Assembly: GCA_016716965.1 (NCBI GenBank)
Contig: JADJUP010000026.1
Span: forward strand, 56,604 to 120,603
Length of the DNA stretch: 64,000 nucleotides
Source: Sulfuritalea sp.
GTDB lineage: Bacteria > Pseudomonadota > Gammaproteobacteria > Burkholderiales > Rhodocyclaceae
Direction of reading: 5' to 3'
In this document: piece by piece, positions 10,180-42,358 of the stretch
Layout of the letters: each line of letters opens with the position of its first letter
Numbering within the stretch: position 1 is the stretch's first letter
Made by a program: the position numbers and the translations under genes
Notes under the pieces: model-generated
What the model saw: the letters and a program-made list of their open reading frames with translations, nothing else
Databases searched by the model: none
What the model was told of the DNA's origin: nothing

Positions 10180-10276
10180 TTCTGCCGAAGCACGGCAGGC
10201 TTGGACTCCCTGCGTCGCGGGGAGTCCGGGCGCCTGGCAACAAAGTTGAAAGCTGCACTTACTGGAGGGGAGAGAA

Positions 10277-25570: not shown

Positions 25571-25686
25571 TTACTCGAATTATCCTTCGCCGTGGCAGGG
25601 CTTCGTTAGAGTACCCTGCCTAATCCGGTGAAGCCGCGACGCATACACTGGAATACTACGTTGTCCAGTGCAGGAGGAGCCCCGCA

Positions 25687-27132
25687 ATGAACGCAATGGA
25701 ACCGCCAAATTTTGGCGCGAGCGCGCCGGTGGCCGCCACGGCCGCATTCAAACGCACCTTCGCCGAGATGCATGCCGCGACCCGGCGCAATCCCGAGGTC
25801 GATCGCAGTCGCCGCCAGGCGCGTCTCGATGCGCTGCTGGCGCTGGTTCATGACAACGGCGATCGGTTTGTCGATGCGATCGCGGCCGACTTCGGTCATC
25901 GCTCGGCGCACGAAACACGCCTGCTCGAACTGTTTCCCAGCCTCGAAGCAGTGCGCCACACGCGCTCGCATTTCGGCGCCTGGATGAAGCCGCAGAAGAA
26001 GGCACCATCGATCTGGTTTCGTCCGGGCCGGGCGCGCATCATCAACCAGCCGCTGGGCGTGGTCGGCATCATCGTGCCCTGGAACTACCCGCTGTTCCTC
26101 GCCATCTCGCCCATGGCAGCGGCGCTGGCGGCCGGCAATCGGGTCATGGTCAAGATGTCCGAATTCACGCCGCGCACCGGCGAACTGCTGGCCGAACTGG
26201 CGGGCAGGTACTTTGCCGCCGAGGATGTCGCCGTGGTGCTGGGTGATGCGGCGGTCGGCGCCGATTTCGCCCGCCTGCCCTTCGACCATTTGCTGTTCAC
26301 CGGATCGACCAAGGTCGGCCACGACATCATGCGCATGGCGGCAGACAACCTGACGCCGGTCACGCTGGAACTCGGCGGCAAGTCGCCGGCCATCGTCGGC
26401 GCCGACTACCCGCTGGCCAAGGCGGCCGAGCGCATCATGGTCGGCAAGCTGCTCAACGCCGGGCAGACCTGCATCGCGCCCGATTACGTGCTGGTGCCGG
26501 CCGGACGCGAGCAGGCCTTCATCGAGGCGGCGCGCGCCGTGGTGGCGAAGTTGTTTCCCGACATGGCGAACACTCCCGACTACACCGCGATCGTCAACGA
26601 GCGCCATTACCAGCGCCTGCAGGGCTATCTCGCTGATGCACGGGAACGCGGCGCGACCATCGAGCCGTTGTCGACAGCGCAGGCCGACGACGTGCACCGC
26701 CGCCTGCCACCGATGGCCTTGCTTCAGGTCGACGATGGCATGCGCGTGATGCAGGACGAGATCTTCGGCCCGCTCCTGCCGGTGTTGCCCTACCATGACC
26801 TCGATGGCGCGATCTTTCATGTGAACCAGCATCCGCGCCCGCTGGCGCTTTACTATTTCGGCAATGATGGGGCGCAGCGCGACCGCGTGCTCAACGAAAC
26901 CGTGGCCGGCGGCGTCACCATCAACGACACCATCCTGCACATCGCCCAGGAAGAGTTGCCTTTCGGTGGCGTCGGACCCAGCGGCATGGGCCACTACCAT
27001 GGCATCGAAGGCTTCAAGACCTTCACCAAGCAGAAGGCGGTGTTCTACCAGTCCGGGCTCAATGGGATGTCGCTGTTCAATCCGCCCTATGGCGTGCTGT
27101 TCGAGCGCCTGACGAAGTTCCTGATGCGCTGA
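25687..27132 (+). CDS. Aldehyde dehydrogenase (coniferyl/fatty aldehyde DH, CalB/AlkH-like)
   Basis: PWNYP, FTGST, LELGGKSP, catalytic NAGQTCIAPD, EIFGP, PFGGVGPSGMG. Confidence 0.92.
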   Translation: MNAMEPPNFGASAPVAATAAFKRTFAEMHAATRRNPEVDRSRRQARLDALLALVHDNGDRFVDAIAADFGHRSAHETRLLELFPSLEAVRHTRSHFGAWMKPQKKAPSIWFRPGRARIINQPLGVVGIIVPWNYPLFLAISPMAAALAAGNRVMVKMSEFTPRTGELLAELAGRYFAAEDVAVVLGDAAVGADFARLPFDHLLFTGSTKVGHDIMRMAADNLTPVTLELGGKSPAIVGADYPLAKAAERIMVGKLLNAGQTCIAPDYVLVPAGREQAFIEAARAVVAKLFPDMANTPDYTAIVNERHYQRLQGYLADARERGATIEPLSTAQADDVHRRLPPMALLQVDDGMRVMQDEIFGPLLPVLPYHDLDGAIFHVNQHPRPLALYYFGNDGAQRDRVLNETVAGGVTINDTILHIAQEELPFGGVGPSGMGHYHGIEGFKTFTKQKAVFYQSGLNGMSLFNPPYGVLFERLTKFLMR

Positions 27133-27141: not shown

Positions 27142-28047
27142 ATGGCGGCACGGCAATTGCGCTGGCTACTGTTCGCCGAACTGGCGATCTACGGGGTGCT
27201 CGGCGTCTGGCTGGCAGCACGCGGATGGACACCGCTTGAGGCGGCAGGTTTCGGTTTGGCATGTTTTCTTGTAGTGCGACTGTGCCTGGTCCTGCTGACC
27301 TTCGGCTTCATGTTGAGGGGGGCCGGTGCGGTTCCCGAGCAGATGCGCATCGGTCCGCTACAGGCACTGCGCATGGTGCTCGAGGAGTATGCCGCACTGA
27401 TCGTCCTGTTCACCGTGATCCAGCCCTTCGAAGGATTCTGGCTGGGCCCCGACCGCCTCGGCCATTGCGCGACGCGTCCGCTGCCCCTGTTGTTGATCCA
27501 TGGCTACCAGTGCAATCGCGGATTCTGGGTCTGGATGCGCTGGCGCCTGGAAGCAGCAGGCTGGACCGTTGCGACCCACAGCCTGGAGCCGGTCTATGCC
27601 GATATCGACAGCTACTCTGAGGGCATTGCGCGGCGTATCGAAGAGGTGCTGGCGAGCACCGGTGCGCCACAAGTGATCCTGGTCGGACACAGCATGGGTG
27701 GCCTGGCATCCCGCGCCTACCTGCGGTGCCATGGAACCGGGAAGGTGGCGCGCTTGATCACGCTGGGTTCGCCGCATCATGGAACGCTGCTGGCGTGTCT
27801 GGGCCTTGGCCCGAATGCGCGCCAGATGCGCATCGACAGTCCCTGGCTCCGCGCGCTGCCGGCGACGTTGCCGCCGACGTCGGTGTCGATCTACAGTTTG
27901 CACGACAACTACGTGTTTCCGCAGGAGACCAGCTCCCGGCTGGAAGGCGCAAGCAATACGGCCATCAGCGGCGTCAGCCATCTGGGCATGGCCTTTTCGC
28001 CCCGGATGCTGCGCAGTTTGCTGGAAGCGCTCGAAACATCGGATTGA
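27142..28047 (+). CDS. Membrane-anchored alpha/beta hydrolase (lipase/esterase)
   Basis: N-terminal TM helices; LIHGY oxyanion motif, GHSMGG, GSPHHG, SHLGM. Confidence 0.85.
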   Translation: MAARQLRWLLFAELAIYGVLGVWLAARGWTPLEAAGFGLACFLVVRLCLVLLTFGFMLRGAGAVPEQMRIGPLQALRMVLEEYAALIVLFTVIQPFEGFWLGPDRLGHCATRPLPLLLIHGYQCNRGFWVWMRWRLEAAGWTVATHSLEPVYADIDSYSEGIARRIEEVLASTGAPQVILVGHSMGGLASRAYLRCHGTGKVARLITLGSPHHGTLLACLGLGPNARQMRIDSPWLRALPATLPPTSVSIYSLHDNYVFPQETSSRLEGASNTAISGVSHLGMAFSPRMLRSLLEALETSD

Positions 28048-28068: not shown

Positions 28069-29673
28069 ATGAAAGAGTTCGATTACATCGTAGTGGGTGG
28101 TGGTGCCGGAGGCTGTGCCGTGGCGGGTCGCCTTTCGGAAGATCCGGCGGTGAGCGTATGCCTGCTGGAAGCGGGCAAGGGCGACGACCAGTTGCTGATC
28201 AAGGTGCCCTTTTGTACCGCGCTGATGCTGCCGACCTCGATCAACAACTGGGCGTTCGAAACGGTGCCGCAGCCAGGTCTCAACGGCCGGCGCGGTTACA
28301 TGCCGCGCGGCAAGGCCATGGGCGGTTCGACCTCGATCAACGCGATGGTCTATACGCGCGGCCATCCATGGGATTACGACCAATGGGCGGCGTTGGGCAA
28401 TGACGGTTGGTCCTGGCAGGATGTGCTGCCCTATTTCAGGAAATCGGAGCACAACGAGAACTTCGGCGGCGAGTACCACGGGCGGGACGGACCGCTCAAT
28501 GTCGCGAACCTGCGTTCGAAGAATCCCTTTCAGGAAATCTATCTGGAAGCCGCACGCCAGACCGGCTTCAAGCTGATCGACGACTTCAACGGCGCCGACC
28601 AGGAAGGCATCGGCATCTACCAGGTCATGCAGATGAACGGCGAACGCTGGAACGCCGCCCGCGCCTATCTGGCACCGCACATGGCAAGCCGACCCAACCT
28701 GACGGTGATCACCCAGGCGCGGGCGCGACGCGTTGTGTTCACTGGCAAGCGCGCCAGCGCCGTGGAATTCCTGCAGGGCGGCGAAGTCCAGACCGTCCAG
28801 GCGAAACGTGAAGTGCTCCTGGCCGCCGGCGCGATCCAGTCGCCCCAGTTGTTGATGCTCTCCGGCATCGGCGCCGGCGCCGAACTGCAGCAGTTCGGCA
28901 TCCCCGTCATCCACGACCTTCCCGGCGTCGGCAAGAACCTGCAGGACCATCCGGACTATGTCTTCAACTACCGCGCCAGGTCGCTTGACCTGCTCGGCAT
29001 CTCCCTTGGTGGCGCAGTGCAGATGATGAAAGAGGTCGGCCGCTATCGGAGGGAACGCACCGGCATGATGACCTCGAACGGCGCCGAGGGCGGCGGCTTC
29101 CTGCGCCGCTTCCCGGATTCGCCGGCGCCGGAGTTCCAGTTGCACTTCGTAGTCGGCATGATCGACAGCCATGCGCGCAAATTGCATATGGGGCACGGCT
29201 ATTCCTGCCATGTCTGCCTGCTGCGGCCGAAGAGCGTTGGAACGCTGGCGCTGGCCAGTGCCGATCCATTGGCGGCACCTCGCATCGATCCGAATTTTTT
29301 CGGCCATCCCGACGATCTCGAGGCCATGGTCGATGGCTTCAAGCTGACACGCAAGCTGATGGATGCGCCGATCCTCGCGGGTATTCGCACCGGCGAGGTC
29401 TATACGGAAGGGATACATTCCGACGATGCGATACGCGAGGAACTCAGGAAGCGCTCCGACACCATCTATCACCCGATCGGAACCTGCAAGATGGGCAACG
29501 ATGCGATGGCGGTGGTTGATTCGCGATTGCGCGTGCGAGGCCTCGAAGGCCTGCGCGTGGTGGATGCCTCGATCATGCCGACGCTGATCGGCGGCAATAC
29601 CACTGCGCCGACCCTGATGATCGGCGAAAAGGCCGCAGAGATGATACGTAGCGACGCCGGGGTCGCAGCCTGA
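28069..29673 (+). CDS. GMC oxidoreductase (AlkJ/choline dehydrogenase-like)
   Basis: VGGGAGG, PRGKAMGGSTSINAM, NLQDH, YHPIGTCKMG, GNTTAP. Confidence 0.92.
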   Translation: MKEFDYIVVGGGAGGCAVAGRLSEDPAVSVCLLEAGKGDDQLLIKVPFCTALMLPTSINNWAFETVPQPGLNGRRGYMPRGKAMGGSTSINAMVYTRGHPWDYDQWAALGNDGWSWQDVLPYFRKSEHNENFGGEYHGRDGPLNVANLRSKNPFQEIYLEAARQTGFKLIDDFNGADQEGIGIYQVMQMNGERWNAARAYLAPHMASRPNLTVITQARARRVVFTGKRASAVEFLQGGEVQTVQAKREVLLAAGAIQSPQLLMLSGIGAGAELQQFGIPVIHDLPGVGKNLQDHPDYVFNYRARSLDLLGISLGGAVQMMKEVGRYRRERTGMMTSNGAEGGGFLRRFPDSPAPEFQLHFVVGMIDSHARKLHMGHGYSCHVCLLRPKSVGTLALASADPLAAPRIDPNFFGHPDDLEAMVDGFKLTRKLMDAPILAGIRTGEVYTEGIHSDDAIREELRKRSDTIYHPIGTCKMGNDAMAVVDSRLRVRGLEGLRVVDASIMPTLIGGNTTAPTLMIGEKAAEMIRSDAGVAA

Positions 29674-29845
29674 TTCGACGTCCGGCCGGAAATGCCTGCG
29701 CGCATTGCGGCATGCCCTGTTCCGGCGGGGTTCCAGGTCGAGCGCAGGCCGATGTTGGGTGATAGAGTTCAGCGCTCGGGAAGGTTGTTGCCCGATCCAA
29801 AAACGGGAAAGAACCCGGTGGGCAGTGTTTTTGAGGAGAGTTCCC

Positions 29846-31123
29846 TTGATTTCGGATTTCATCAGCGATTCACTACGCACCACGGCACTGGGTGCCGCAA
29901 TGAAGGGTGCCGGTTTGGCCGTGCGCTTCCTGCCCATACCGCAGCCGACGATCCTGGTCGGGCCGGGTGCCAGCGGACGGCTTGGGCAAACCATCGCCGG
30001 CTTCGGCCACCGCAAGATCCTCATCGTCACCGACAGCATCATTTCCAAGCTGGGCCTGCTCGATGACCTGACCTCGGCCCTGACGGCGGGCGGCGCGGAG
30101 TACGTGGTCTTCGATTCGATCACGCCCGATGCGCCGATTCCGCTGATCGAGGAGGGCATCGACTTCTATGAGGCGAACGACTGCGATGCCATCGTGGCCT
30201 TCGGCGGCGGGTCTTCGATGGATGCCTCCAAGGCCATCGCCGCGGCGGTTTCCAATCCCGGCAAGTCGCTGCGCGAGCTGGCCGGCTATTTCAAGGGCCT
30301 GCATACGCCGGTCAAGATCTACGCCGTTCCCACCACCGCGGGCACCGGCTCGGAGGTGACCGTTGCCGCGGTGATCTCGGACCCGGAACGCCATGCCAAG
30401 CTGGTGATCGTCGATACGCGACTGGTGCCGAAGATGGCGGCGCTCGACCCCTGCCTGATGACCGGGCTGCCGCCGCACATCACCGCGGCGACGGGCATCG
30501 ACGCCCTGACCCACGCCATCGAATCCTTCATCGGCAAGTGGGCCAATTCCTACACGGATGACATGGCCCTGTCGGCCGTCGGGCTGATATTCGACAATCT
30601 GCGGGTGGCCTATAGCGACGGCAAGAACCTCGCCGCACGGGAAAAGATGGCCCTGGCCGCCACCTATGCGGGGCTTGCCTTCACGCGGGCCAACGTCGGC
30701 TATGTGCATGCGATCGCGCACCAGTTCGGCGGCAGGTACCACACCCCGCACGGACTGGCCAACGCCATCATGCTGCCGCTGGTCCTCAAGTACTCGCTGC
30801 CGGCCGTCACCGACCGCCTGGCCCTGCTGGCGGTGCGCGCCAGGCTCGGCAAGGAAAGCGAAGGGGAAGATGCGCTGGCGCAGAAGTTCCTCGACGCGGT
30901 CGTGCAACTCAATAGCGACCTCGGCATCCCGACCTGCCTCGCCGCGCTGAAGGAATCCGACATTCCGCAATTGGCCGAGGCCGCCTGTCGCGAGGCTCAC
31001 ACCGGCTATCCGGTGCCGCGCTACATGACGCAGGCGCAGTGCGAGGATCTGATTCGCCAGGTGCTGCCGCCGGCGCCGGCGGCGCCGAAGAAGCCGGTCC
31101 GGCGTCGCAAGAAGCCGGAGTAG
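29846..31123 (+). CDS. Iron-containing alcohol dehydrogenase
   Basis: GGGSSMD, PTTAGTGSE, DALTHAIE, HAIAHQ, HGLANA; TTG start after a GAGGAG RBS (alternative ATG at 29900). Confidence 0.9.
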   Translation: MISDFISDSLRTTALGAAMKGAGLAVRFLPIPQPTILVGPGASGRLGQTIAGFGHRKILIVTDSIISKLGLLDDLTSALTAGGAEYVVFDSITPDAPIPLIEEGIDFYEANDCDAIVAFGGGSSMDASKAIAAAVSNPGKSLRELAGYFKGLHTPVKIYAVPTTAGTGSEVTVAAVISDPERHAKLVIVDTRLVPKMAALDPCLMTGLPPHITAATGIDALTHAIESFIGKWANSYTDDMALSAVGLIFDNLRVAYSDGKNLAAREKMALAATYAGLAFTRANVGYVHAIAHQFGGRYHTPHGLANAIMLPLVLKYSLPAVTDRLALLAVRARLGKESEGEDALAQKFLDAVVQLNSDLGIPTCLAALKESDIPQLAEAACREAHTGYPVPRYMTQAQCEDLIRQVLPPAPAAPKKPVRRRKKPE

Positions 31124-31182: not shown

Positions 31183-33501
31183 ATGAAAAAAGTCGTTACC
31201 GTGACCCTGGGGTCGTCGAAAAAGGATTTCGAATTCAAGACGAAGTTCCTCGGCCAGGAATTCCAGGTGCGGCGCTTCGGCGCTGACAAGGACAGCAGCA
31301 AGGCCTGGGAGCTGATGCGACGCCAGCAGGCCAATGCCGATGCCATCGCCCTGAGCGACATGCCCGACCACTACCACGTCGGCTTGCGCACGGTGATCAA
31401 CAAGAAGTCGCAGCATCTGATGCAGGTCGTCACGCGGGTACCTGTCACCACGGGCGCCAGCCTGCGGCGGCTGCTGCAAGTGCGTGCCGTGCGCTACGTG
31501 CAGAAGGAGCTGGGTCGTTACTTCGACAATAACCTGGTCCTGTTCCTCTCCGGAATGCGCAATTACGACATGGCGGTGGCCCTGTCCGACTACACCAGGA
31601 ACCTCAGCTTTGCCGATCCTGTCTTCCATGCCGCTTCTCCCGTGCTGCTGAGTTCGCTCGATCAGCTCGAACTTTTCGCCAAGGGCAAGGAACTCCTTCC
31701 GGACGGCGTGCCGGGAGACTTCCTGAAGTCCGTTCTGGGTACGCTGAAGAACAAGATCGTGGCCAACGCCGTGGCCAAGTCCCATGTCATCGTCGGCACC
31801 TTCCGCGAAATCCAGGCCGTTGCCGCCGGCGGCAACCTGGAAGGCAAGACGCTGATCACCTCGGCTGTCGATGACGAGGCGTTTGCCTTTTTCGCCAAGC
31901 ACAAGGTCAACCTTGCGGTGGATGTCTCGCCCAAGCTCTTCGATCAGGTGGTCGGCATCAGCACCATCACTGCCATGATTCTCGCGGCCACCGGAAAGTC
32001 GGAAGCGGAACTCACCGACCATGATTTCGAGGAGATACTCCACGAGCTCGACATCAAGCCGCGCCTGCTCCATCCCACCGGACATTTCCGCAACATTCGC
32101 CGCTTCGCCTTCGTGGTCCATCCGCTGAGCCAGGAGTACATCAAGAAGGGCTTCCCGCTGCCCAAGGGCACGCCCAAGTTCATCATGGACAAGGTGGAAA
32201 CGCTCGCCGCCTACATGCCGCCGATGGTGTATTGCAAGATGAGCAACATCGTCTCGCCCACCGGCGCCGAGGCTGAAGGCTGGCTGATTTCCGTGGGTGG
32301 CACACCCAAGGAAATGCTCTCGCACAGCCCCGAGTTCACCTACCGGCGCCTGCTTCACGCGGCGAAGATCGCCGAAGGCCTGGGCGCCCAGATCATGGGC
32401 CTTGGGGCCTTCACCAAGGTCGTCGGCGATGCAGGCATCACCGTGGCGCGACGCGCGAGCATTCCGATCACCACCGGCAACAGCTACTCCGCATCCGGCG
32501 CGCTCTGGGCGGCGGCCGACGCCATGCGCCGCATGGGCCTGATCAAGCCGACCAAGGATTCGAAACGGGTGCCGGCGAAGACCATGGTGATCGGCGCCAC
32601 TGGCTCCATCGGTTCGGTCAGCGCCCGCCTGCTGGCCATGGCCTTCGACGAAGTGGTGATCGCCGGGCGCGACATCAAGAAGCTCAATGAGCTGCGCGAT
32701 TCGATCCTGCAGGACACGCCCGATGCCAAGGTCATCTCATCCACGGATTATGACAGCCTGCTTGGCGACATGGACATGATCGTCACTTCGACCTCGGGTG
32801 CCGGCAAGAAGATCCTGGATATCACCAAGGTCAAGCCTGGCTGCGTGATCACCGACGTGGCACGCCCCCTCGATCTGCCGCCCTCGGAGGTGGCCAAGCG
32901 CCCGGATGTGCTGGTGATCGAATCGGGTGAGATCGAATTGCCGACGCCGGTCAAGGGCATGAAGTCGATCGGCTTGCCGAAGAATGTCATCTACGCCTGC
33001 CTGGCGGAGACAATCGTCCTGGCGCTGGAGGGACGCTTCGAGGTATTTACCATCGGTCGCGATACCGAATGGGAGAAGGTCAAGGAGATCTACAAGCTCG
33101 GCATCAAGCACGGCATGAAGCTGGCGGCGATATCGGGTGTCAAGGGTGTCTACACGGACGAAGATATTGCCAAGGTAGTGGCCCTCGCAAGAAAGGCGCG
33201 ATCAACCTGGAAGGGTTCCAGCGCCGTTTCTGCTGCCAAGGCGCCGGCGAAGAAATCCGCGGCGAGCAAGGCCGTGGCCAAGGAGAAGAAGGTCACGGAA
33301 GCCAAGGCTCCCGCGAAGAAGGCCACGACAAAAAAGGCCGTAGCCAAGAAGTCCACGGAAGCGAAGGCTCCGGCGAAGAAGGCCGTGCCAACCAAGGCTT
33401 CCGCCAAGATCGTGGTTGCGGCGAAGAAACGGGCTTCTGGTCCGGCACCGGCAAAGAACGCTGCCGGCGCCGCAAGCGGGAAGAAAAAGGCGTCGACATA
33501 A
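31183..33501 (+). CDS. Three-part dehydrogenase: unknown N-terminal domain + acyl-ACP reductase-like domain + Lys/Ala-rich tail
   Basis: GLGAFTKVV, TTGNSYS, GATGSIG, YACLAETIVLALEG align by eye with cyanobacterial AAR (LGGFTSII, TTGNTHT, GATGDIG, FACFAEAMLLEFEG). Confidence 0.75.
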   Translation: MKKVVTVTLGSSKKDFEFKTKFLGQEFQVRRFGADKDSSKAWELMRRQQANADAIALSDMPDHYHVGLRTVINKKSQHLMQVVTRVPVTTGASLRRLLQVRAVRYVQKELGRYFDNNLVLFLSGMRNYDMAVALSDYTRNLSFADPVFHAASPVLLSSLDQLELFAKGKELLPDGVPGDFLKSVLGTLKNKIVANAVAKSHVIVGTFREIQAVAAGGNLEGKTLITSAVDDEAFAFFAKHKVNLAVDVSPKLFDQVVGISTITAMILAATGKSEAELTDHDFEEILHELDIKPRLLHPTGHFRNIRRFAFVVHPLSQEYIKKGFPLPKGTPKFIMDKVETLAAYMPPMVYCKMSNIVSPTGAEAEGWLISVGGTPKEMLSHSPEFTYRRLLHAAKIAEGLGAQIMGLGAFTKVVGDAGITVARRASIPITTGNSYSASGALWAAADAMRRMGLIKPTKDSKRVPAKTMVIGATGSIGSVSARLLAMAFDEVVIAGRDIKKLNELRDSILQDTPDAKVISSTDYDSLLGDMDMIVTSTSGAGKKILDITKVKPGCVITDVARPLDLPPSEVAKRPDVLVIESGEIELPTPVKGMKSIGLPKNVIYACLAETIVLALEGRFEVFTIGRDTEWEKVKEIYKLGIKHGMKLAAISGVKGVYTDEDIAKVVALARKARSTWKGSSAVSAAKAPAKKSAASKAVAKEKKVTEAKAPAKKATTKKAVAKKSTEAKAPAKKAVPTKASAKIVVAAKKRASGPAPAKNAAGAASGKKKAST
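33235..33405 (+). repeat. Degenerate in-frame tandem repeats encoding KAPAKK...(K)AVAK...TEA units
   Basis: Three AAGGC(G/T)CC(G/C)GCGAAGAA copies spaced about 60-66 bp apart. Confidence 0.8.
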
Positions 33502-33596
33502 GCGTCGCTCCCCCGCGGTTCGACACGTGCCGCGGGCTCCCGCCGGCGGCATCACGTGCCGGGAATGGTGGCGGGCGCGTTCTGGAGGATGCCCCC

Positions 33597-33684
33597 GAGG
33601 TCATTAGTGTGACCTCTCTAATGCGAGTCGATAGACTTGATCGGATGGTGGGCAAAGCGTCCGCCCGGGCCTTGACTTCAAGGC
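33597..33684. promoter_or_regulatory. Inverted repeats upstream of the phasin gene (candidate operators)
   Basis: GAGGTCA-N6-TGACCTC (33597-33616) and GCCTTGA-CT-TCAAGGC (33669-33684). Confidence 0.4.
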
Positions 33685-33714
33685 TGCCAGGATCAATTCA
33701 ATCAGGAGATTGTT

Positions 33715-34200
33715 ATGGTGAAGAAACTCGTGGTAAAGAAGCTGAAGGCCATCAGCGAAGACAGTCAGCTTTCCGCAACCATTCGTGAATCGGCCCAGCA
33801 GATCTGGCTGGCCGGACTTGGCGCTTTTGCCAAGGCACAGCAGGAAGGCAACAAGGTTTTTGACGCGCTGATTCGCGAAGGCGAGGCGATCCAGAAAAAG
33901 ACCCGCAAGGTTACCGAGGACAGGGTCACCGAAATGGCGGCCAAGGCGACCGGGACCTGGGACAAGCTGGAGCAGGTTTTCGAGAATCGCGTCGCTCGTT
34001 CGCTGAACAGCCTGGGCGTACCGACCAAAGCCGATGTCGAACAACTGGCGAAGCGCGTGGCCGAGCTCAAGGCCGAGGTCGAAAAGCTCAATGGCGGCGC
34101 CCCGAAAGCTGCGAAGGCCAAGCCCGTTGCAGCGAAGCCGGTACGCCGCGCAGCGCCAAAAGCAGCGCCGAAGGCGGCCCCCAAGAGCGCTGCAACCTGA
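33715..34200 (+). CDS. phaF: Granule-associated phasin, PhaF/PhaI family, with AKP/AAPK tail
   Basis: SAQQIWLAGLGAFAKAQQEGNKVFDALIREGE, WDKLEQVFENRVARSLNSLGVP. Confidence 0.85.
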   Translation: MVKKLVVKKLKAISEDSQLSATIRESAQQIWLAGLGAFAKAQQEGNKVFDALIREGEAIQKKTRKVTEDRVTEMAAKATGTWDKLEQVFENRVARSLNSLGVPTKADVEQLAKRVAELKAEVEKLNGGAPKAAKAKPVAAKPVRRAAPKAAPKAAPKSAAT

Positions 34201-34291
34201 CGCCGGTGCGGGCAGCAAATGCCCGTCCACCTAGGCGGTGGCGGCCAATGAGGCATGGTTGCGGAGCGATGGCGGAACGGGGACGAAAGCC

Positions 34292-35521
34292 GTGAAGAGA
34301 CCGTCGGGCAAGGCTCTGGCCCTCGCCGGTGGTGGCCCGCTCGGTGCCATCTACGAGATCGGTGCGTTGATGGCATTGTCCGAGGCGCTCGACGGGTTCG
34401 ATTTCACCGACCTCGATGCCTATGTGGGCGTGAGTGCAGGCAGTTTCATTGCCGCCGGCCTGGCCAACGGACTTGGTCCTGCCTACCTGTACCGGATGTT
34501 CATAGACAGCGATTCAGCCGAGGTTCCCTTCGAACCCGAGATGCTGTTGCGACCGGCCCTCGACGAATACGCGCGGCGGGTGTCGACGATACCGGCGCTG
34601 CTTGCTGAGTCGCTCGTGGAGTACCTGCGCAGTCCGTTGCGCCGGGATTTCCTGGCTTCCTTCCAGCGCTTGTCGCAGGCGATTCCGACCGGCCTGTTCA
34701 ACAATGCCGGCGTCGATGATTTCCTGACCCGGCTGTTCTCGCTGCCCGGCATGACCAACGATTTCCGCCGCTTGCGTCACCGCCTGTACCTGGTGGCGAC
34801 CGACCTTGATTCGGGTACCGCGATTGCTTTCGGTGCCGAGGGTCACGACCATGTCCCCATCGCGACGGCGATACGCGCCAGCGCGGCGCTGCCCGGCCTC
34901 TTCCCGCCGGTGGAGATCGACGGTCGCTGGTATGTCGACGGTGCGCTGAAGAAGACCCTGCACGCGTCCGTGGCACTCAAGGAAGGTGCGCGTCTGGTGT
35001 TGTGCATCAATCCGCTGGTGCCCTTCGACGCCACCCATGCCGCGCACGAAAAGCACATCCGCCAGCGCAGGCTGGTCGACGGCGGTCTGCCGGTGGTACT
35101 CGCGCAAACCTTCCGCGCCATCATCCATTCGCGCATGAAGACCGGGCTGGCGAAGTACGACATCGAGTACAAGGACGCCGACGTCATCCTGTTCGAGCCG
35201 GATCGCGACGACGCCGACATGTTCTTCACCAACATGTTCAGTTACGCCGACCGCAAGCAGCTTTCCGAAAAGGCTTACCGCAAGACGCGGGAGGAACTGC
35301 TGCGGCGGGCTGACGAACTGGCGCCGAAGCTGGCGCGCCACGGCGTGTCGATCAATCACGCGGTACTGACCGATCCGCACCGATCTCTGGCGCGCCGAAT
35401 GGGGCAGCTCAAGCGGCGTCGCGCGCGGAACATGGGCCTTACGGCCCTGCGCCTGTCCGACACGCTGGACGACCTGGCGGGCGCCCTCAGGCGTTTGCGG
35501 CGCAGTCGCGTCGCTGCCTGA
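34292..35521 (+). CDS. Patatin-like phospholipase
   Basis: AGGGPLG, GVSAG, YVDGAL; start uncertain (34238 or 34292). Confidence 0.88.
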   Translation: MKRPSGKALALAGGGPLGAIYEIGALMALSEALDGFDFTDLDAYVGVSAGSFIAAGLANGLGPAYLYRMFIDSDSAEVPFEPEMLLRPALDEYARRVSTIPALLAESLVEYLRSPLRRDFLASFQRLSQAIPTGLFNNAGVDDFLTRLFSLPGMTNDFRRLRHRLYLVATDLDSGTAIAFGAEGHDHVPIATAIRASAALPGLFPPVEIDGRWYVDGALKKTLHASVALKEGARLVLCINPLVPFDATHAAHEKHIRQRRLVDGGLPVVLAQTFRAIIHSRMKTGLAKYDIEYKDADVILFEPDRDDADMFFTNMFSYADRKQLSEKAYRKTREELLRRADELAPKLARHGVSINHAVLTDPHRSLARRMGQLKRRRARNMGLTALRLSDTLDDLAGALRRLRRSRVAA

Positions 35522-35588
35522 GATGCCGGCGATGACGGGAGGATGGGGGTGGTTCTGCTATCCTCGCGACCATGGTCGAGACGGGTGA

Positions 35589-36239
35589 GTGATGGAAAAG
35601 AAACCTAAGCGCCGCACGCGAGAGCGCATCCTGGAGACGTCACTGGCGTTGTTCAACGATTTCGGCGAGCCGAACGTCACCACGCAACTCATATCCGACG
35701 AAATGGGCATAAGCCCCGGAAACCTCTATTACCACTTTCACAACAAAGACGAGATCATCGAGTCCCTGTTCGGCGATTTCGAGCGCGGCATAGAGGAAAC
35801 CCTCGGCGCGCCGTCGCGACGCCCGCCCAATGTCGAGGACATCTGGCTGTTCCTGCACCTGATCTTCGAGGGCATCTGGAGGTACCGATTCCTCTATCGC
35901 GACATCAACGAACTGCTTTCGCGCAACCGGCTGCTGGAAACGCACTTCAAGCGCATCGTGGCGCACAAGGTGAATACCGCGCGGCTGATCTGCAAGGGCC
36001 TGGTGGCGACCGGCGACATGAAGGCGACCCCGGCAGAGATCCAGGCGCTGGCGGTGAATATGACGGTGGTCGCAACCTACTGGCTGTCGTATGAGTTCGT
36101 CAGCGATCCGCGGAAGAAGATCGACGGAGAAAGCCTGTCGCGCGGCGCGTTTCAGGTCATGGCGCTCGCTGCGCCCTACCTCGTGGGGCGCTCGCGCGAA
36201 CTGTTCGAGGAAGTGTCGAAGAATTACCTGCCCGACTGA
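35589..36239 (+). CDS. TetR family regulator, PhaD-like
   Basis: TRERILETSLALFNDFGEPNVTT...GISPGNLYYHF and EDIWLFLHL..YRFLYRD resemble Pseudomonas PhaD. Confidence 0.85.
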   Translation: MMEKKPKRRTRERILETSLALFNDFGEPNVTTQLISDEMGISPGNLYYHFHNKDEIIESLFGDFERGIEETLGAPSRRPPNVEDIWLFLHLIFEGIWRYRFLYRDINELLSRNRLLETHFKRIVAHKVNTARLICKGLVATGDMKATPAEIQALAVNMTVVATYWLSYEFVSDPRKKIDGESLSRGAFQVMALAAPYLVGRSRELFEEVSKNYLPD

Positions 36240-36246
36240 GAGCCCG

Positions 36247-37044
36247 ATGAGACCTGCCACTGCAAAGCCTGCCTGGGCCAAGTTCCCGCATGCGGACAAG
36301 GCATTCATTTACGCCGGTGCCTCGCTGAAGAAGAATTGGGAACGCCTGCATCGGGGAGACCAGGAACCCTTTCCTGCCGATCCGGCCGTTCAGGAGGCAT
36401 GGCGGCTCTATCATCAGGGCGAGTTCCAGGCCGCTTGCGAGGCCGGACTTGCTGCCGGGATCGATGGCTACAACGCCGCCAACAAGGCCGCCATGATCTA
36501 CGCCACCTACCTCGAAGGCGACGAGCGGCGCAAGCTGGAAACATTCCAGGGCATTGCCGCGCGCTGTGGGGAATTGCAGCGGGCGCAGCCGAAGAACGTC
36601 AACGGGCATTACTTCCAGGCCTATGCGCTGGGCCGTTACAGCCAGGGCATCTCGGTGCTCAAGGCCCTGACCGACGGCCTCGGCGGCAGGATCAAGTCCG
36701 CACTGGAAGCGACCCTGCGCCTGGAGCCGAGACATGCCGAGGCGCATAGTGCGCTGGGCGCCTACCATGCCGAGGTCGTGGACAAGATGGGGGCCATGGT
36801 CGCCAGGCTCACTTACGGTGCGAGCAAGGAACTTGCCGTCAAGCACTTCGAGACGGCACTGAAGCTGACTCCGGATTCGGCGATCGCCTGCATCGAATAC
36901 GCCAATGCGCTAGTCATGTTGTTCGGCGACAAGCGCATGGACGACGCGATCGATCTCTACGAAAAGGCCGCAGCGGCAACCCCGGTCGAGGCCATGGAAA
37001 AGCTCGACGTCGAACTGGCGAAGTCGGAACTCGAAGACGAGTAG
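36247..37044 (+). CDS. Conserved hypothetical helical-repeat (TPR-like) protein
   Basis: Native codon usage; helical repeats (AYALGRYSQ, AHSALGAYHAE, IEYANALVML). Confidence 0.75.
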   Translation: MRPATAKPAWAKFPHADKAFIYAGASLKKNWERLHRGDQEPFPADPAVQEAWRLYHQGEFQAACEAGLAAGIDGYNAANKAAMIYATYLEGDERRKLETFQGIAARCGELQRAQPKNVNGHYFQAYALGRYSQGISVLKALTDGLGGRIKSALEATLRLEPRHAEAHSALGAYHAEVVDKMGAMVARLTYGASKELAVKHFETALKLTPDSAIACIEYANALVMLFGDKRMDDAIDLYEKAAAATPVEAMEKLDVELAKSELEDE

Positions 37045-37047
37045 AGC

Positions 37048-38643
37048 TTACGTCCGGAACCGCTTCGGTATCCGTCGCGCTGCCTTCGGCTCGAGAGTCG
37101 GCGCTGGCGACACGGCGGCTGCGGCTGACGACTTCGGCGCGACCTTGCGCCTTCCGGGTTTATGCGGTGTGACTGCCGGCACCCCGGTGACGCGACGGCC
37201 GAACAGGCTTTCTTCGGCCATTGCCGGATCGATCGGCCGATCCCATTCCAGCATGAGAAGTGCCAGCAGCATCTTTTCGAACTCGGCAGCGAACAGCGGC
37301 GTGACGGTCTCCGGGTCGGGGATGAAATGGCGGTCACTGATCAGGCTGAACTGCACCGCATCGTTGTAGCTGAGGATCGAGACTCCGACCCCGATGTCGC
37401 CCGACTGCGGCACCCAGAACATGCACTGATCGAGCCGGTTGCCGGCCAGGTAGAGCGGCTGCTTGGGGCCGGGCACGTTGGTCATCACCGCGCTGGCCTT
37501 GGCCGCCAGCATGTCGAGGAACTGCTGCTGCACCAGCTTCGGCGCAAGGCCGACGACGGCGAGGACGCCCAGCGTCAGCGGCGGCTGGAAGGAGTGCTTC
37601 AGTTCGTTCATGCGTTCGCGCACCAGGAACAGCCGCGCGAAGGGATTGGCCTCCCAGATCGGCAGCGACAGCGTGACCAGGCCGAAGCGGTTGCCCAGCG
37701 TGCCTTCGTCCCGCGCCGAGCGCAGGTTGACCGGCACCATCGCGCGCACCTCGACGCCGTCGACGGTTTCGCCCTTCTGCTGCAGATAGGCACGGAAGGC
37801 TCCGGCCACGGCCGAGAGCAGGACGTCATTGACCGAGCAGCCGAGCGCCTTGCCCAGCGCCTTGACTTCGCCCAGGGGTATCGGATCGGCCCAGGCCACG
37901 CGCTTCACGGTGCCGGTGTGGCCCTTCAGGCTGGTTGGTGAATCGGGTGGCATCGCCAGCAGCTTGGCAAGTTCGGCCAGCAGGCCGATGCCGTACTGGC
38001 CATAGGTTTGCAGACGGTCGGGGTCCTGCGCCAGGGACATGGCCTTGCTGCCCAGGTCGCTGCCGGCATGGACGGCCGAGCCCAGGGTTTCGGCCAGGGT
38101 TTCGAGCAGGCCGCGCGAAGGTTCATCGAACTCCCCGTCCTCGTCGCCGACGGGCGGTGGTGCCTTCTGCGGCGGAGCGTCGGCCGACTCGTCGGTGAGC
38201 GACAGCACCACGCCGACCAGCGCGATGCCGTCGGCGATGCTGTGGTGGATGCGGACCACCATGGCCGAGCCGCCTTCGTAGTCCTCGATCAGGTCGAAAC
38301 GCCACAGCGGCTTGCCCGGGTTCAGCGGCTGCACCGCAAGTTCGCCGGCCAGCGCCTGCAAGGCGACCTTGCCCGAGCCCCGGGGCAGGGCACGGCGGCG
38401 CAGGTGCGCGTCGATGTCGAAGTCGGGATCGTCTTCCCAGAACGCGCCGCCGACTTCCTGCACCGCGCACTGGCGGAAGCGCCGGTAGCGTCCGACAAGG
38501 CGGGCCGCGATGGTGTTGCGCAGGCGGGCGAAGTCCATGCGCCGGGCAAAGACCATGACGCCGAGGATCATCATCAGGTTGGTCGGCCGGTCCATGCGCA
38601 GCCAGGCCGTATCAACAGCAGACATTCTTTCGCGTCGGTGCAT
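37048..38643 (-). CDS. Wax ester synthase/diacylglycerol acyltransferase (WS/DGAT)
   Basis: MSAVDTAWLRMD, catalytic HHSIADG, SVNDVLL, VPVNLR, TNVPGP, SILSYND. Confidence 0.93.
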   Translation of the reverse strand: MHRRERMSAVDTAWLRMDRPTNLMMILGVMVFARRMDFARLRNTIAARLVGRYRRFRQCAVQEVGGAFWEDDPDFDIDAHLRRRALPRGSGKVALQALAGELAVQPLNPGKPLWRFDLIEDYEGGSAMVVRIHHSIADGIALVGVVLSLTDESADAPPQKAPPPVGDEDGEFDEPSRGLLETLAETLGSAVHAGSDLGSKAMSLAQDPDRLQTYGQYGIGLLAELAKLLAMPPDSPTSLKGHTGTVKRVAWADPIPLGEVKALGKALGCSVNDVLLSAVAGAFRAYLQQKGETVDGVEVRAMVPVNLRSARDEGTLGNRFGLVTLSLPIWEANPFARLFLVRERMNELKHSFQPPLTLGVLAVVGLAPKLVQQQFLDMLAAKASAVMTNVPGPKQPLYLAGNRLDQCMFWVPQSGDIGVGVSILSYNDAVQFSLISDRHFIPDPETVTPLFAAEFEKMLLALLMLEWDRPIDPAMAEESLFGRRVTGVPAVTPHKPGRRKVAPKSSAAAAVSPAPTLEPKAARRIPKRFRT

Positions 38644-38765
38644 CGTGGTCATCCTCAAATAGGCGGACATATCCCGCAAAGGGATACGGCATCCGGTGCT
38701 ATGCCCGGAGACATATAATATTCGAAGCCCAATCCGGGCAACCATTCCTTGACGGTGACGATGAC

Positions 38766-39023
38766 ATGAGCAATCTCAAGAAGAAGTTCGAAGCGGCAGC
38801 AGCCGATTCCAAGAAGCTTCCCGAGCGGCCCTCCAATGACGTGCTGTTGCAGCTTTACGCGCTTTACAAGCAGGGCAGCGAGGGCGACGTGGAGGGCAAA
38901 CGCCCGGGCTTCACCGACATGGTCGGACGCGCCAAGTATGACGCCTGGGCGGCGGTCAAGGGCACCTCGGCCGAGGACGCAATGCAGCAATACATCGATC
39001 TGGTGAAATCGCTCAAGGATTGA
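38766..39023 (+). CDS. Acyl-CoA-binding protein (ACBP)
   Basis: LLQLYALYKQGSEGD, GRAKYDAW, AMQQYIDLV. Confidence 0.92.
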   Translation: MSNLKKKFEAAAADSKKLPERPSNDVLLQLYALYKQGSEGDVEGKRPGFTDMVGRAKYDAWAAVKGTSAEDAMQQYIDLVKSLKD

Positions 39024-39072
39024 CGCGCTGTGGCGCCGTGTCGCCGGCGCCGACTTTTGTGCGCCAGGGACG

Positions 39073-39354
39073 TCAAGCCGGCCCGAAGTTCTCGTCGCAG
39101 AAGCGGTTGATTTCGTGCTCGATGCGCGGGCCAAGGGCCATCAGCAGGAAGCCGAGCTTGACGTAGATCTCGACTTCCTTCTTGCCGACTTCGATGTGTC
39201 CGGAAACGCCCATGCGCTGGAAGCGCAGGATGTCGCCCTCCCATTCGTGGTCGAGGCCGAATTCCTCGCCGAGTTCCTCGGCGATGTGCTCGGCGCCCTT
39301 GCGCGCCTTCTTGAGCGTGGTGTGGTGCGGACGGCAAACCCGGATTTCACTCAT
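39073..39354 (-). CDS. 'Polyhydroxyalkanoic acid system' family small protein
   Basis: C-terminal part of ORF 39073..39816: MSEIRVCRPHH..ARKGAEHIAEELGEEFGLDHEWEGDILRFQRMGVSG..VKLGFLL. Confidence 0.8.
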   Translation of the reverse strand: MSEIRVCRPHHTTLKKARKGAEHIAEELGEEFGLDHEWEGDILRFQRMGVSGHIEVGKKEVEIYVKLGFLLMALGPRIEHEINRFCDENFGPA

Positions 39355-39368
39355 GCGGCGGCTGCCTC

Positions 39369-41033
39369 CTAGGCTTTCTCGTCGCGCAGTTCGCGACGCA
39401 GTATCTTGCCGACGTTGGTCTTCGGCAGCTCGTTGCGGAAGGCGATGTGGCGCGGTACCTTGTAGGCGGTCAGGTTGGCGCGACAGTGTTCGAGCAGCGC
39501 GGCCTCGGTCAGCGTCGGGTCCTTCTTTACCACGTAGATCTTCACCGCTTCCCCGGTCTTCGTGTCCGGCACGCCAACCGCCGCCGATTCCAGCACGCCC
39601 GGATGCATGGCCAGCACGTCCTCGATCTCGTTCGGATAGACGTTGAAGCCGGAGACCAGGATCATGTCCTTCTTGCGGTCGACGATCTTGACGAAGCCGC
39701 TTGCCTCGATCACCGCCACGTCGCCGGTGCGCAGGAAGCCGTCGGGCATGATGACCTTGGCGGTTTCCTCGGGACGGTTCCAGTAGCCCTTCATAACCTG
39801 CGGGCCGCGCACGCAAAGCTCGCCGGCCTCGCCGAGGGGCAGGTCCCTGCCTTCGTCGTCGCGGATCACCACTTCGGTCGACGAGATCGGCATGCCGATG
39901 CTGCCGTTGTACTGTTCGAGGTCGACCGGGTTGATGGTTGCGGCGGGGGAGGTTTCGGTCAGGCCGTAGGCTTCGAGCAGGGTGGTCCCGGTGAGCTCCT
40001 TCCAGCGCTCGGCCACCGCGCGCTGCACCGCCATGCCGCCGCCCAGTGTCAGGCGCAGCTGGGACAGGTCGATCCTGGCGAAGTCCGGATTGTTCACCAT
40101 GGCATTGAACAGCGTATTGACGCCGGTGATGGTGGTGAACGGGTACTTGCCGATCTCCTTGATGAACCCGGGAATGTCGCGCGGATTGGTGATCAGCACG
40201 TTGGTGGCGCCTATCTTGAAGAAGGTCAGGCAGTTCGCCGTCAGCGCGAAGATGTGGTAAAGCGGCAGCGCGGTAATGATGATTTCATGGTCACGCAGGA
40301 AGGGCTTGATCCAGGCATGGGCCTGCTGCAGGTTGGCGATGATGTTGCGATGGGTCAGCATCGCGCCCTTGGATACGCCCGTGGTGCCGCCCGTGTACTG
40401 CAGGAAGGCGAGGTCCTCGTGCCCCACTTCGACCGGCTTGAGCGGATAGCGGCCGCCCTCGATCAGCGCGTCGCGCAGTTCGATGGCATTGGCGATGCTC
40501 CATGCCGGTACCATCTTCTTGACGTGCTTCACCACCAGGTTGACGATCATGCGTTTGGGGAAGTCGAGCATGTCGCCCAGCTGGGTGACGATCACGTGCT
40601 TCACCGGCGTGCGCGTGACCACGTTTTCCAGCACCCTGGCGAAGTTCTCGACGATGACGATGGCCTCGGCGCCGGAATCCTTGAGCTGGTGCTCCAGTTC
40701 GCGCTCGGTGTACAGCGGGTTGCAGTTCACCACCGTGTAGCCGGCGCGCAGCGCGCCGTAGAGGCAGATCGGGTACTGCAGCAGGTTGGGCATCATCAGC
40801 GCGATGCGCGCGCCCCTGGGCAGTTTCAGCACGGACTGGCAGTAGGAGCCGAAGGCGGCCGAGAGCTTTTCCAGCTCGGCGTAGGTGATCGCCTTGTCCA
40901 TGTTGATGTAGGCCTTGCGCGGCCCGTAGAGCTTGACGCTCTTCTCGAACAGGTCGCCGATCGAGCGAAATTCGTTGAGGTCGATTTCTGCCGGCACGCC
41001 GGCCGGATAATGCTTGAGCCAGATCTTTTCCAT
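39369..41033 (-). CDS. fadD: Long-chain fatty-acid-CoA ligase
   Basis: [49 protein letters not shown]. Confidence 0.93.
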
Positions 41034-41110: not shown

Positions 41111-42358
41111 TCAGCAAAGCCAGTGTTGCAAACGCTCCGCCACTTGAGCATCGTCGAGCAGGTCCATGTGGTTCATGCCGTAGCCGATCCAGCGCCGCGA
41201 TTCCGGGAAATCGAGTCGGCCGCGCTTCGCGCTGCCCTCGCCGAGAGCGCTCTTCACGGGCACCAGGCCATCACCCAGCAGCGGCTCAGCGAAATGGGCC
41301 GGAGCCTTGGCCAGGGTCACGCCTATCGCATGGCATTGCACGCCGGCAGGCAGGGGGATCAGGCGCGGCGCGCGACCGCGGGCGAAGCGGTCGCCGTGTT
41401 CCCAGTCTTCGTCGAGGATGCTGCCGTGACGCAGGTCGGTGATCCCGGCGCTGCGTATCTTTCCCAGGCGGGCCAGGGCGGCCGTGTAGGGGCTGATGCC
41501 CAGGATCACGTCGATCCAGTTGCCGCCGCGCTCCAGCGGTGCGCCGAGGTGTGGCGTGCCGAGAAACACCATCTGGCGCAGGTGGGCCAGCCAGGCCTGA
41601 CCTGATTTCTCGGCATGGCGGCAGGCGCTGCGGGCGACCAGTCCGCCCATGCTGTGGCCGACGATGACGAGTTTCTCGATCGGAACCGGCCACGACTTGA
41701 TCAGGTCCTCAAGCAATTCCGAGAGCGCCCGGCCGTTGGTCGAAACATGCTGGCCGCTGTTGTAGTGCAGGTAGAGCGGGGTGTAACCGCCGGCCGCCGC
41801 CAGCGCGGCGCCGTGGTCGTAGCCGCCGCGCCGCCACTGGAGGTCGTTCATGCACAGGCCATGCGCCAGCAACAGGATCCTTCCGGTCGCGCCGGGGAGG
41901 GCGGCCACCAGGTCGTTGCGTTCGAGCGGCAACGGCCGGCCGTTTCGCCGCAGGCGCATTTCGATGGCCAGTGGATTGCCGCTGGCGGCCAGGTGGTCGC
42001 CCAGCACGCCGTTGAGCGCGGCGAGCACCGCCTCGCGCGTGGCGGACGATTCCGTGGGTTCGGCGTCGACCAGCGGCAGCAACTGGCCGATCAGGGCGTC
42101 GATACCGTGGCCGACCAGGCGCGTGCAGCCCTGGATGCTGCGATAAACCAGGCCGGTGATGCCGCGTGGCAGCTCCTGCGAGAACTGTCCGAGCGGCCCG
42201 GGCATGCGCGCAATGTTGTGGTGCATGCTCGCCACCAGCCGCGTCAGGCCGAGTGTGGCGTCCACCGCGAGGCGACTGGCGCCGCGAATGTCGCCAGGGC
42301 GTACATGTGCCTTGCGTGCCGGCGCCGCGTGCGACGCACTGGCTTTGGGTCTGGCCAT
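41111..42358 (-). CDS. Alpha/beta hydrolase (PGAP1/lipase-like)
   Basis: AHGLCMND, YNSGQH, GHSMGG, GTPHLGAP, GDGLVP, NHMDLL. Confidence 0.85.
   Translation of the reverse strand: MARPKASASHAAPARKAHVRPGDIRGASRLAVDATLGLTRLVASMHHNIARMPGPLGQFSQELPRGITGLVYRSIQGCTRLVGHGIDALIGQLLPLVDAEPTESSATREAVLAALNGVLGDHLAASGNPLAIEMRLRRNGRPLPLERNDLVAALPGATGRILLLAHGLCMNDLQWRRGGYDHGAALAAAGGYTPLYLHYNSGQHVSTNGRALSELLEDLIKSWPVPIEKLVIVGHSMGGLVARSACRHAEKSGQAWLAHLRQMVFLGTPHLGAPLERGGNWIDVILGISPYTAALARLGKIRSAGITDLRHGSILDEDWEHGDRFARGRAPRLIPLPAGVQCHAIGVTLAKAPAHFAEPLLGDGLVPVKSALGEGSAKRGRLDFPESRRWIGYGMNHMDLLDDAQVAERLQHWLC

Follow-up and report, generated by a model that had tools for sequence, protein, structure and literature searches.

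Why does the gene for a PhaF/PhaI-family phasin lie among genes for a WS/DGAT acyltransferase, a patatin-like lipase and enzymes of fatty alcohol metabolism? This question is raised by a 64,000-nt stretch of a Sulfuritalea draft genome, hereafter called the window, and all coordinates given below are positions within it. An initial annotation of the window had described the block at positions 33715–39354 as a granule kit of the Pseudomonas medium-chain-length (mcl) polyhydroxyalkanoate (PHA) type, and proposed that this kit either serves a neutral-lipid body other than PHA or represents an ancestral, generic set for lipid inclusions. From comparisons with related loci and genomes, we conclude that the locus is very likely a wax-ester metabolic cluster. 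It probably forms the central part of a TetR-controlled regulon through which wax esters are stored and turned over, with a PhaF-type phasin as the coat. Triacylglycerol may be an additional product.

Conserved neighbours and co-occurrence of the phasin

Which genes accompany the phasin gene in other bacteria? Two sets of loci were compared: 20-kb regions centred on phasin homologues, taken from 20 members of the same order, and the best 80 loci obtained on scanning 185,579 species genomes, to which all counts out of 80 refer. An orthologous patatin gene follows the phasin gene in 72/80 loci, and a fatty acyl-CoA reductase of the Maqu_2507 type (661–686 aa) is encoded divergently and directly upstream of the phasin in 67/80 loci. 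The combination of NAD_binding_4 and short-chain dehydrogenase/reductase (SDR) domains in this reductase is the Maqu_2507 architecture, and the protein matches NF005539 with 1012 bits. A tetratricopeptide repeat (TPR) protein (66/80) and a TetR-family regulator (65/80) are encoded near the phasin in most loci, followed in frequency by an esterase (39/80), WS/DGAT (37/80), an acyl-CoA-binding protein (ACBP; 20/80), an aldehyde dehydrogenase (20/80) and a PF09650 protein (14/80). A PhaC gene is encoded no more than 10 kb away from the phasin in 1/80 loci.

The common order is the reductase on the minus strand, phasin–patatin–TetR–TPR on the plus strand, WS/DGAT (minus), ACBP (plus) and PF09650 (minus). 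Most of the 100 loci compared, which come from Beta-, Gamma- and Alphaproteobacteria, keep this order and orientation, and such recurrence indicates that the arrangement is not due to chance. The carriers include Sulfuritalea, Accumulibacter, Dechloromonas, Propionivibrio, Ramlibacter, Polaromonas, Pseudoduganella, Rugamonas, Microvirga and Beijerinckiaceae. Among those that can be cultured are Polaromonas sp. C04, Ramlibacter albus, Caenimonas soli, Rugamonas brunnea, Pseudoduganella sp. UC29_71 and Microvirga alba. Only in the Sulfuritalea clade do an iron-containing alcohol dehydrogenase (Fe-ADH) and a protein resembling acyl-ACP/CoA reductase (AAR) take the place of the Maqu_2507-type enzyme. 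A fatty-alcohol-forming reductase is a hallmark of wax-ester synthesis, and we know of no role for such an enzyme in PHA metabolism. Since the neighbours of the phasin are this reductase, lipases and WS/DGAT, and not PhaC, the use of the module for a lipid other than PHA is favoured.

Does the phasin follow the acyltransferase across genomes as well? Among 151 genomes drawn evenly from the order (61 families), the phasin occurs in 22, the WS_DGAT_cat domain in 22 and both in 21. PhaC_N is found in 105 genomes, 83 of which have no phasin. The co-occurrence profiling that the initial annotation had recommended thus ties the phasin to WS/DGAT (21/22), PhaC being distributed far more widely. One of the two exceptions, G070, has WS/DGAT, and the phasin was not found in its genome, which is 86% complete and divided into 580 contigs; the other, G120, is considered below. 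The joint presence or absence of phasin and WS/DGAT varies inside three families (f5, f7 and f23) and one genus (g10), and therefore the pattern is not that of one inherited block. A naive Fisher calculation gives 2e-23 for the overlap, a value that is overstated because related genomes are not independent; chance co-occurrence was rejected on the 21-genome overlap. In a class-level sample of 300 genomes, PF05597 scores above the cut-off in 11, and WS/DGAT is present in 8 of these 11, as compared to 15/300 above the cut-off overall. No recognisable Pseudomonas pha locus was found in the genomes of this sample.

What of genomes in which no PHA synthase was found? Two genomes of other orders, G334 (100% complete) and G340 (99%), gave neither a PhaC_N nor a class III PhaC match in the profile search. 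In G334, the PF05597 phasin, a DUF3336-patatin, a PF13972 TetR and WS/DGAT are encoded within ~7 kb. In G340, one contig holds two phasin-like genes together with TetR, PF09650 and DUF3336-patatin genes, and the two WS/DGAT genes are located on other contigs. A third genome, G446, has a sub-threshold class-III-like match only; in it, the genes for a TetR and two phasins are grouped with a PF09650 gene and one for a Maqu_2507-type reductase.

The gene cluster, its phasin and its promoter palindromes

In the window, which has ~65% G+C, real genes were recognised by reading frames with high third-position G+C. The phasin, TetR, PF09650 protein, WS/DGAT and patatin named in the initial annotation are all present, as indicated by their domain matches, and the block 33715–39354 contains no PHA synthase or depolymerase. 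Two further genes inside the block, for a TPR protein and an ACBP, had gone unnamed. The block is not a unit in itself, as it constitutes only the middle part of a larger one of ~17 kb (~25.6–42.4 kb), with the following features:

25606–25623, unstranded: TTAG-N10-CTAA, an operator-like palindrome 64 nt upstream of the start codon of the aldehyde dehydrogenase gene
25687–27132, plus strand: aldehyde dehydrogenase (PF00171, 290 bits)
27142–28047, plus strand: PGAP1/LCAT-like alpha/beta hydrolase (PF00561, PF07819 and PF02450 matches)
28069–29673, plus strand: GMC oxidoreductase (PF00732, PF05199; under the NCBIfam choline dehydrogenase cut-offs)
29705–31123, plus strand: Fe-ADH with a basic C-terminal tail (PF00465, PF25137)
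ending at 33501, plus strand: AAR-like protein of the AAR/PigE-N type (partial NF053554 and TIGR04058 matches)
33604–33621, unstranded: operator-like palindrome TTAGTGTGACCTCTCTAA, beginning 111 nt before the phasin start codon
33715–34200, plus strand: phasin of the PhaF/PhaI family, 161 aa (PF05597, TIGR01837)
34238–35521, plus strand: patatin-like lipase (PF01734, 101.8 bits)
35589–36239, plus strand: TetR-family regulator (PF00440, 40 bits; PF13972, 150.8 bits)
36247–37044, plus strand: TPR-repeat protein, 265 aa (weak TPR matches), starting 8 nt past the TetR stop
37048–38643, minus strand: WS/DGAT acyltransferase with a basic C-terminal tail (TIGR02946, PF03007, PF06974)
38766–39023, plus strand: ACBP (PF00887, 107.5 bits), divergent from WS/DGAT
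39031–39052, unstranded: GC-rich terminator-like hairpin between the convergent ACBP and PF09650 genes (consensus match only)
39073–39354, minus strand: small PHA_gran_rgn (“PHA system”) protein, 93 aa (PF09650)
39369–41033, minus strand: long-chain fatty acid-CoA ligase FadD (NF005463, 903 bits, above the cut-off)
41111–42358, minus strand: PGAP1-like alpha/beta hydrolase with a basic N-terminus (PF07819, PF05057), a second candidate lipase/esterase

The genes fall into two co-directional strings. The first consists of the five tightly spaced plus-strand genes from aldehyde dehydrogenase through esterase, GMC alcohol dehydrogenase and Fe-ADH to the AAR-like reductase. The second comprises phasin, patatin, TetR and TPR, and is followed by WS/DGAT, ACBP, PF09650, FadD and the second hydrolase. 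Judging from the families, we propose that this gene set provides a route to fatty alcohols, the enzyme that forms the ester, an acyl-CoA carrier and activator, and three candidate lipases or esterases, as well as the two enzymes needed to convert a released fatty alcohol to the fatty acid. The GMC oxidoreductase is the proposed long-chain alcohol dehydrogenase, by analogy with AlkJ, and the aldehyde dehydrogenase would then oxidise the fatty aldehyde to the fatty acid. The hydrolase at 27142–28047 is a putative wax-ester esterase, and the patatin, in which the glycine-rich oxyanion loop (GGGPLG), the serine motif GVSAG and the aspartate motif DGA are all present, is proposed to be a mobilising enzyme. 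The WS/DGAT scores 388.9 bits against TIGR02946 (cut-off, 309.95) and retains the HHSIADG active-site motif; its start is likely at 38643 or 38625, the longest open reading frame reaching 38745. The Pfam match of the Fe-ADH begins only at residue 82, and its true start is probably downstream of 29705. The PF09650 protein, the single copy in the genome, scores 90 bits (cut-off, 26.6) over model positions 1–85 of 87, and the solved-structure search found no relative of it. Terminator-type hairpins such as that at 39031–39052 are no commoner in the scan than in shuffled sequence.

Basic C-termini rich in Ala, Lys, Pro and Arg recur in the Fe-ADH, AAR-like reductase, phasin, patatin and WS/DGAT, and the PGAP1-like hydrolase at 41111–42358 has such a segment at its N-terminus. 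In the AAR-like reductase, the Lys/Ala-rich tail measures ~100 aa and gives a weak histone-H1-like match (E 0.008, 16.5 bits). These tails may be a common targeting signal to the droplet surface or the nucleoid.

The phasin is the sole PF05597 copy found in the genome by profile search. It matches PF05597 with 135 bits (cut-off, 28.8) over positions 3–125 of the 126 in the model, and TIGR01837 with 101.3 bits (cut-off, 94.7). The nearest phasin loci are those of Sulfuritalea metagenome-assembled genomes, with 83–89% amino-acid identity, which marks the source as a Sulfuritalea-like betaproteobacterium. In an alignment of 16 orthologues, no variation is seen at W31, in the LAGLGA core or at the heptad-spaced L111, L118 and L125. 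With a mean pLDDT of 78.9, the AlphaFold model consists of two helices, at residues 3–99 and 105–125, followed by a disordered tail, and the hydrophobic moment reaches 0.53–0.59 in the 18-residue windows starting at residues 37–52. The Ala/Lys/Pro-rich (A/K/P) tail comprises 36 aa with nine Lys/Arg and zero acidic residues (charge, +9). A basic A/K/P tail is present in all of the orthologues, ranging in length from ~15 to 160 residues. By sequence and predicted structure, this anatomy is the published PhaF plan in miniature (PMC7590123). A phasin-like protein of G340 (L174:3174–3644) gives a weak apolipoprotein A1/A4/E match (E 4.6e-5, far under the family cut-off), which fits an amphipathic helix on a lipid surface.

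How might the cluster be regulated? Alignment of the regions upstream of the phasin genes revealed a conserved palindrome. In the 4.38-Mb genome, TTAG-N10-CTAA occurs exactly twice, as compared to ~15 copies expected from the base composition, and both copies are located at the cluster's two promoters (33604–33621 and 25606–25623). This palindrome, common to both, ties the phasin operon to the fatty-alcohol/aldehyde operon. At both promoters the geometry is (T/A)TTAGt-N8-yCTAR, with 6-bp inverted half-sites 8 bp apart, and it is conserved: TTAG-N10-CTAR is found within 250 nt upstream of the phasin gene in 54/79 loci, and a like site occurs ≤260 nt upstream of the aldehyde dehydrogenase(-esterase) genes in 10/17 related loci. 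The 1.26 Mb of fetched sequence contain 80 TTAG-N10-CTAR sites, most of them upstream of phasin genes. Our alignment of 55 sites yielded the consensus (T/A)TTAGtgTGc..ccTCTAR, with a -10-like TAnAcT 10 nt downstream; the window phasin promoter has a -10-like TAGACT at the same distance from its palindrome. A sigma-70 consensus scan gave no promoter in 33450–39450. The site overlaps the likely -35 element of the phasin promoter, and its regulator therefore likely represses.

The obvious candidate for binding the palindromes, from gene order, is the TetR of the phasin operon, and the position of the site suggests that it acts as a repressor there. Among solved structures, those closest to it are 3nnr and 3rh2, neither of which has an assigned function, and the TetR of G334 is not identical to either. 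The homologue search returned close relatives only, named “TetR/AcrR”; no PhaD-named family was present among the NCBIfam matches of the TetR, and no PhaD-named relative among the 120 homologues listed. The TetR of G120 is 56% identical to that of the window and adjoins a divergent phasin. In several loci (L072, L081, L087, L097, L134, L086 and L071), two TTAG-N10-CTAR sites upstream of the phasin gene lie exactly 22 nt apart, corresponding to about two helical turns, which suggests that two regulator dimers may bind cooperatively. In the window, the upstream partner of this pair is degenerate.

PHA granules, co-regulation and catabolism as alternatives

How closely does the locus resemble the Pseudomonas system? 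The pha genes of Pseudomonas putida are laid out as phaC1-phaZ-phaC2-phaD and phaI-phaF. In both systems the PF05597 phasin has an amphipathic helix as well as a leucine zipper and ends in a basic A/K/P tail, and in both a TetR-family gene stands beside the phasin gene and a mobilising hydrolase is encoded. In contrast, WS/DGAT, the fatty-alcohol route, patatin, ACBP and TPR replace the PHA synthase and PhaZ, the phasin tail is much shorter than that of PhaF, and the Sulfuritalea genome has class I synthases only. The arrangement of a PF05597 phasin beside a class II PHA synthase and PhaZ does not occur at the locus. The 6-bp inverted half-sites 8 bp apart of the candidate operator, a site recognised here from sequence, match the geometry of the PhaD operators (PMC7590123). 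The same study names a beta-oxidation CoA intermediate as the presumed ligand of PhaD and reports that PhaF interacts with PhaD (PMC7590123). The two regulators are alike only in their TetR fold, in being paired with a PF05597 phasin and in the geometry of the operator. PhaD is an activator, unlike the repressor suggested by the operator position here.

Could the phasin and the PF09650 protein be ordinary proteins of polyhydroxybutyrate (PHB) granules, placed in the cluster by co-regulation or by joint inheritance of carbon-storage genes? We regard this as unlikely, although both families are annotated from PHA systems and the genome is equipped for PHB. The draft (92% complete) gave three PhaC_N matches in the profile search, one of them at 6799–8349 of the window, where a class I PHB cluster (6799–10828) consists of phaC, two phaB-like SDR genes and phaR. 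The frame of this phaC changes near 8159 at a short G run, and the homology to an intact paralogue resumes in the next frame, so that the gene is either wrongly assembled here or has recently become a pseudogene. Class I is the best-scoring class for each of the three PhaC copies. The possibility of a hidden class II (mcl) synthase was considered and rejected, as none of the three nears the class II cut-off, and with no class II synthase in the genome the identification of the block as a Pseudomonas mcl-PHA kit is not upheld. Four PhaP-type (PF09361) phasins are encoded elsewhere in the genome; with PhaR and these phasins present, PHB granules are already served by the usual regulator and phasins. 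The PHB-granule explanation is further opposed by the rarity of PhaC at the phasin loci, by the 83/105 PhaC genomes without the phasin as against the 21/22 match to WS/DGAT, by the phasin, TetR and patatin genes retained in PhaC-less genomes, and by the palindrome that the phasin promoter shares with the fatty-alcohol/aldehyde operon.

Additional patatin-like and WS/DGAT genes are present outside the cluster. A second, shorter patatin-like lipase (301 aa, 12184–13089) is encoded two genes downstream of phaR, past a radical-SAM methylthiotransferase-like gene. The genome contains four WS/DGAT genes, two of which lie side by side on the contig of the window, C26 (20943–24102), ~33 kb upstream of the window start, and a fourth on contig C56; the cluster copy is the most divergent of the four with respect to the Pfam model.

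Several observations weigh against assigning the phasin to wax-ester bodies. First, the PF05597 family serves PHA granules in Pseudomonas, a PHB gene set (class I phaC, phaB-like genes and phaR) is present in the Sulfuritalea genome, and all 22 phasin genomes of the order sample carry PhaC, so that within the order no absence of PhaC speaks against a PHA role. Second, WS/DGAT is encoded within 10 kb of the phasin in just 37/80 loci, and the palindrome was not found, even with 3 mismatches, in the WS/DGAT–ACBP or TetR-proximal intergenic regions; direct control of WS/DGAT is therefore not supported. Third, G120 (L183), a complete 6.0-Mb genome of the same order with a weak phasin match (E 1.8e-9) beside TetR, has no WS/DGAT anywhere in the genome, and neither a patatin nor a reductase was found up to 10 kb away from its phasin; it is the one clear exception to the co-occurrence. 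Finally, PF05597 and PF09650 genes are directly adjacent in two f77 genomes (G166/L176 and G383/L177) that have class III PhaC and no WS/DGAT, and PF09650 also occurs in Caulobacter, a control genome which PhaC_N matches and WS_DGAT_cat does not. The PF05597/PF09650 pair is thus not exclusive to either store, and its occurrence in genomes with class III PhaC keeps alive the alternative of an ancestral generic kit.

Taken together, the proposal that the module serves a neutral lipid other than PHA gains support from the comparisons, and specifically for wax esters, through the reductase, lipase and WS/DGAT neighbours, the 21/22 profile, the PhaC-less carriers and the shared palindrome. Considering the PHB genes and the PhaC of all 22 phasin genomes, the phasin may also serve PHA granules, either exclusively or in addition.

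A different explanation, to which we give a low probability, is that the phasin is mainly a nucleoid-bound co-regulator of the TetR, similar to the PhaF–PhaD pair, and tunes transcription of the lipid regulon rather than coating a body. The phasin and TetR genes belong to one operon and are paired in most loci, including three (L054, L056 and L183) with no patatin or WS/DGAT nearby. In addition, the basic A/K/P tail is similar to the one with which PhaF binds DNA, and PhaF binds PhaD and alters the PhaD–DNA complexes (PMC7590123). However, the long, strongly amphipathic helix corresponds to the surface-binding part of the PhaF plan, the tail is short here and highly variable among orthologues, and the coat and regulator roles are not exclusive in PhaF.

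That the cluster is purely catabolic, taking up and oxidising external long-chain alcohols, waxes or alkane products with the phasin emulsifying or buffering hydrophobic substrates rather than a storage body, is very improbable. Degradative functions are indeed found throughout the esterase, the GMC and aldehyde dehydrogenases, FadD and the lipases, but the conserved neighbours WS/DGAT and fatty-alcohol-forming reductase (the latter in 67/80 loci) are biosynthetic, and a domain scan of the unit's proteins found no transporter or alkane hydroxylase.

A proposed wax-ester regulon and its significance

On the wax-ester reading, we propose the following scheme. The TetR would bind the palindromes at the two promoters, most likely as a repressor, and a fatty acyl-CoA or a related lipid would release it. 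With its own gene within the second string, the TetR would also be autoregulated. Upon release, the AAR-like reductase and Fe-ADH would generate the fatty alcohol, for which most relatives would use the Maqu_2507-type reductase, and WS/DGAT would join this alcohol with the acyl-CoA supplied by FadD and ACBP.

The phasin, which we place on the wax-ester bodies with reasonable though not high confidence, would cover the nascent body with its long amphipathic helix and oligomerise through its heptad-leucine helix. Its basic A/K/P tail would contact DNA or anionic lipid, in the manner of PhaF on PHA granules, and the PF09650 protein would be a second surface or regulatory component. When the store is used, the patatin and the two alpha/beta hydrolases would mobilise it, and the GMC dehydrogenase, aldehyde dehydrogenase and FadD would return the alcohol moiety to acyl-CoA.

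This scheme has counterparts in known systems. As in Marinobacter aquaeolei VT8 and Acinetobacter baylyi ADP1, WS/DGAT is the final enzyme and FadD supplies the acyl-CoA. The relatives of the locus share with that route the two-domain Maqu_2507-type reductase, in contrast to the window genome with its AAR-like protein and Fe-ADH. We are not aware of a coat protein or a dedicated regulator for the wax-ester bodies of Marinobacter or Acinetobacter, nor of a structural protein or dedicated regulator for Gram-negative wax-ester or triacylglycerol bodies in general. In Rhodococcus, TadA and MLDS are small structural proteins on neutral-lipid bodies, and the C-terminus of TadA is basic and rich in Lys, Ala and Pro. 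As described, they share the working principle proposed for the phasin, while they belong to unrelated families of a Gram-positive bacterium and to triacylglycerol rather than wax-ester bodies.

A review of phasins includes PF05597 and PF09650 among the four phasin families, and the only phasin that it mentions as also recovered from lipid inclusions is one of Rhodococcus ruber (PMC5658603). A 2023 study of betaproteobacterial ws/dgat scaffolds reported that an ACBP is encoded next to ws/dgat, noted a Maqu_2507-like reductase as well as a “polyhydroxyalkanoic acid system family protein”, and recorded a phasin on one scaffold (PMC10351704). Unlike the present analysis, it read the phasin and the PHA-system protein as PHA genes, and contains nothing on a coat, regulon, operator or co-occurrence. 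Our search of full-text literature, with subscription journals outside its range, found no paper proposing PF05597 or PF09650 proteins as wax-ester body components.

What does the cluster mean for lipid storage in these bacteria? It names testable candidates for the coat and regulation of Gram-negative lipid droplets, namely the phasin, the PF09650 and TPR proteins, and the TetR with its operator. The label “PHA granule-associated protein” may mislead metabolic reconstructions, for instance when Accumulibacter, Dechloromonas and Propionivibrio are modelled in wastewater sludge, a setting in which storage polymers play a central part. Moreover, a ready-made set of coat, carrier (ACBP) and regulator could aid microbial wax-ester production.

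A broader idea, which in our estimate has about an even chance of being right, is that the PF05597 phasin, the PF13972-type TetR and the PF09650 protein make up a general kit for inclusion bodies, independent of polyester. In many Beta-, Gamma- and Alphaproteobacteria the kit would coat and regulate wax-ester bodies, and these would be the only bodies it serves where a PHA synthase is absent. If this is true, Gram-negative lipid droplets would gain their first coat proteins and their first dedicated regulator, and the annotation “phasin” would no longer imply PHA.

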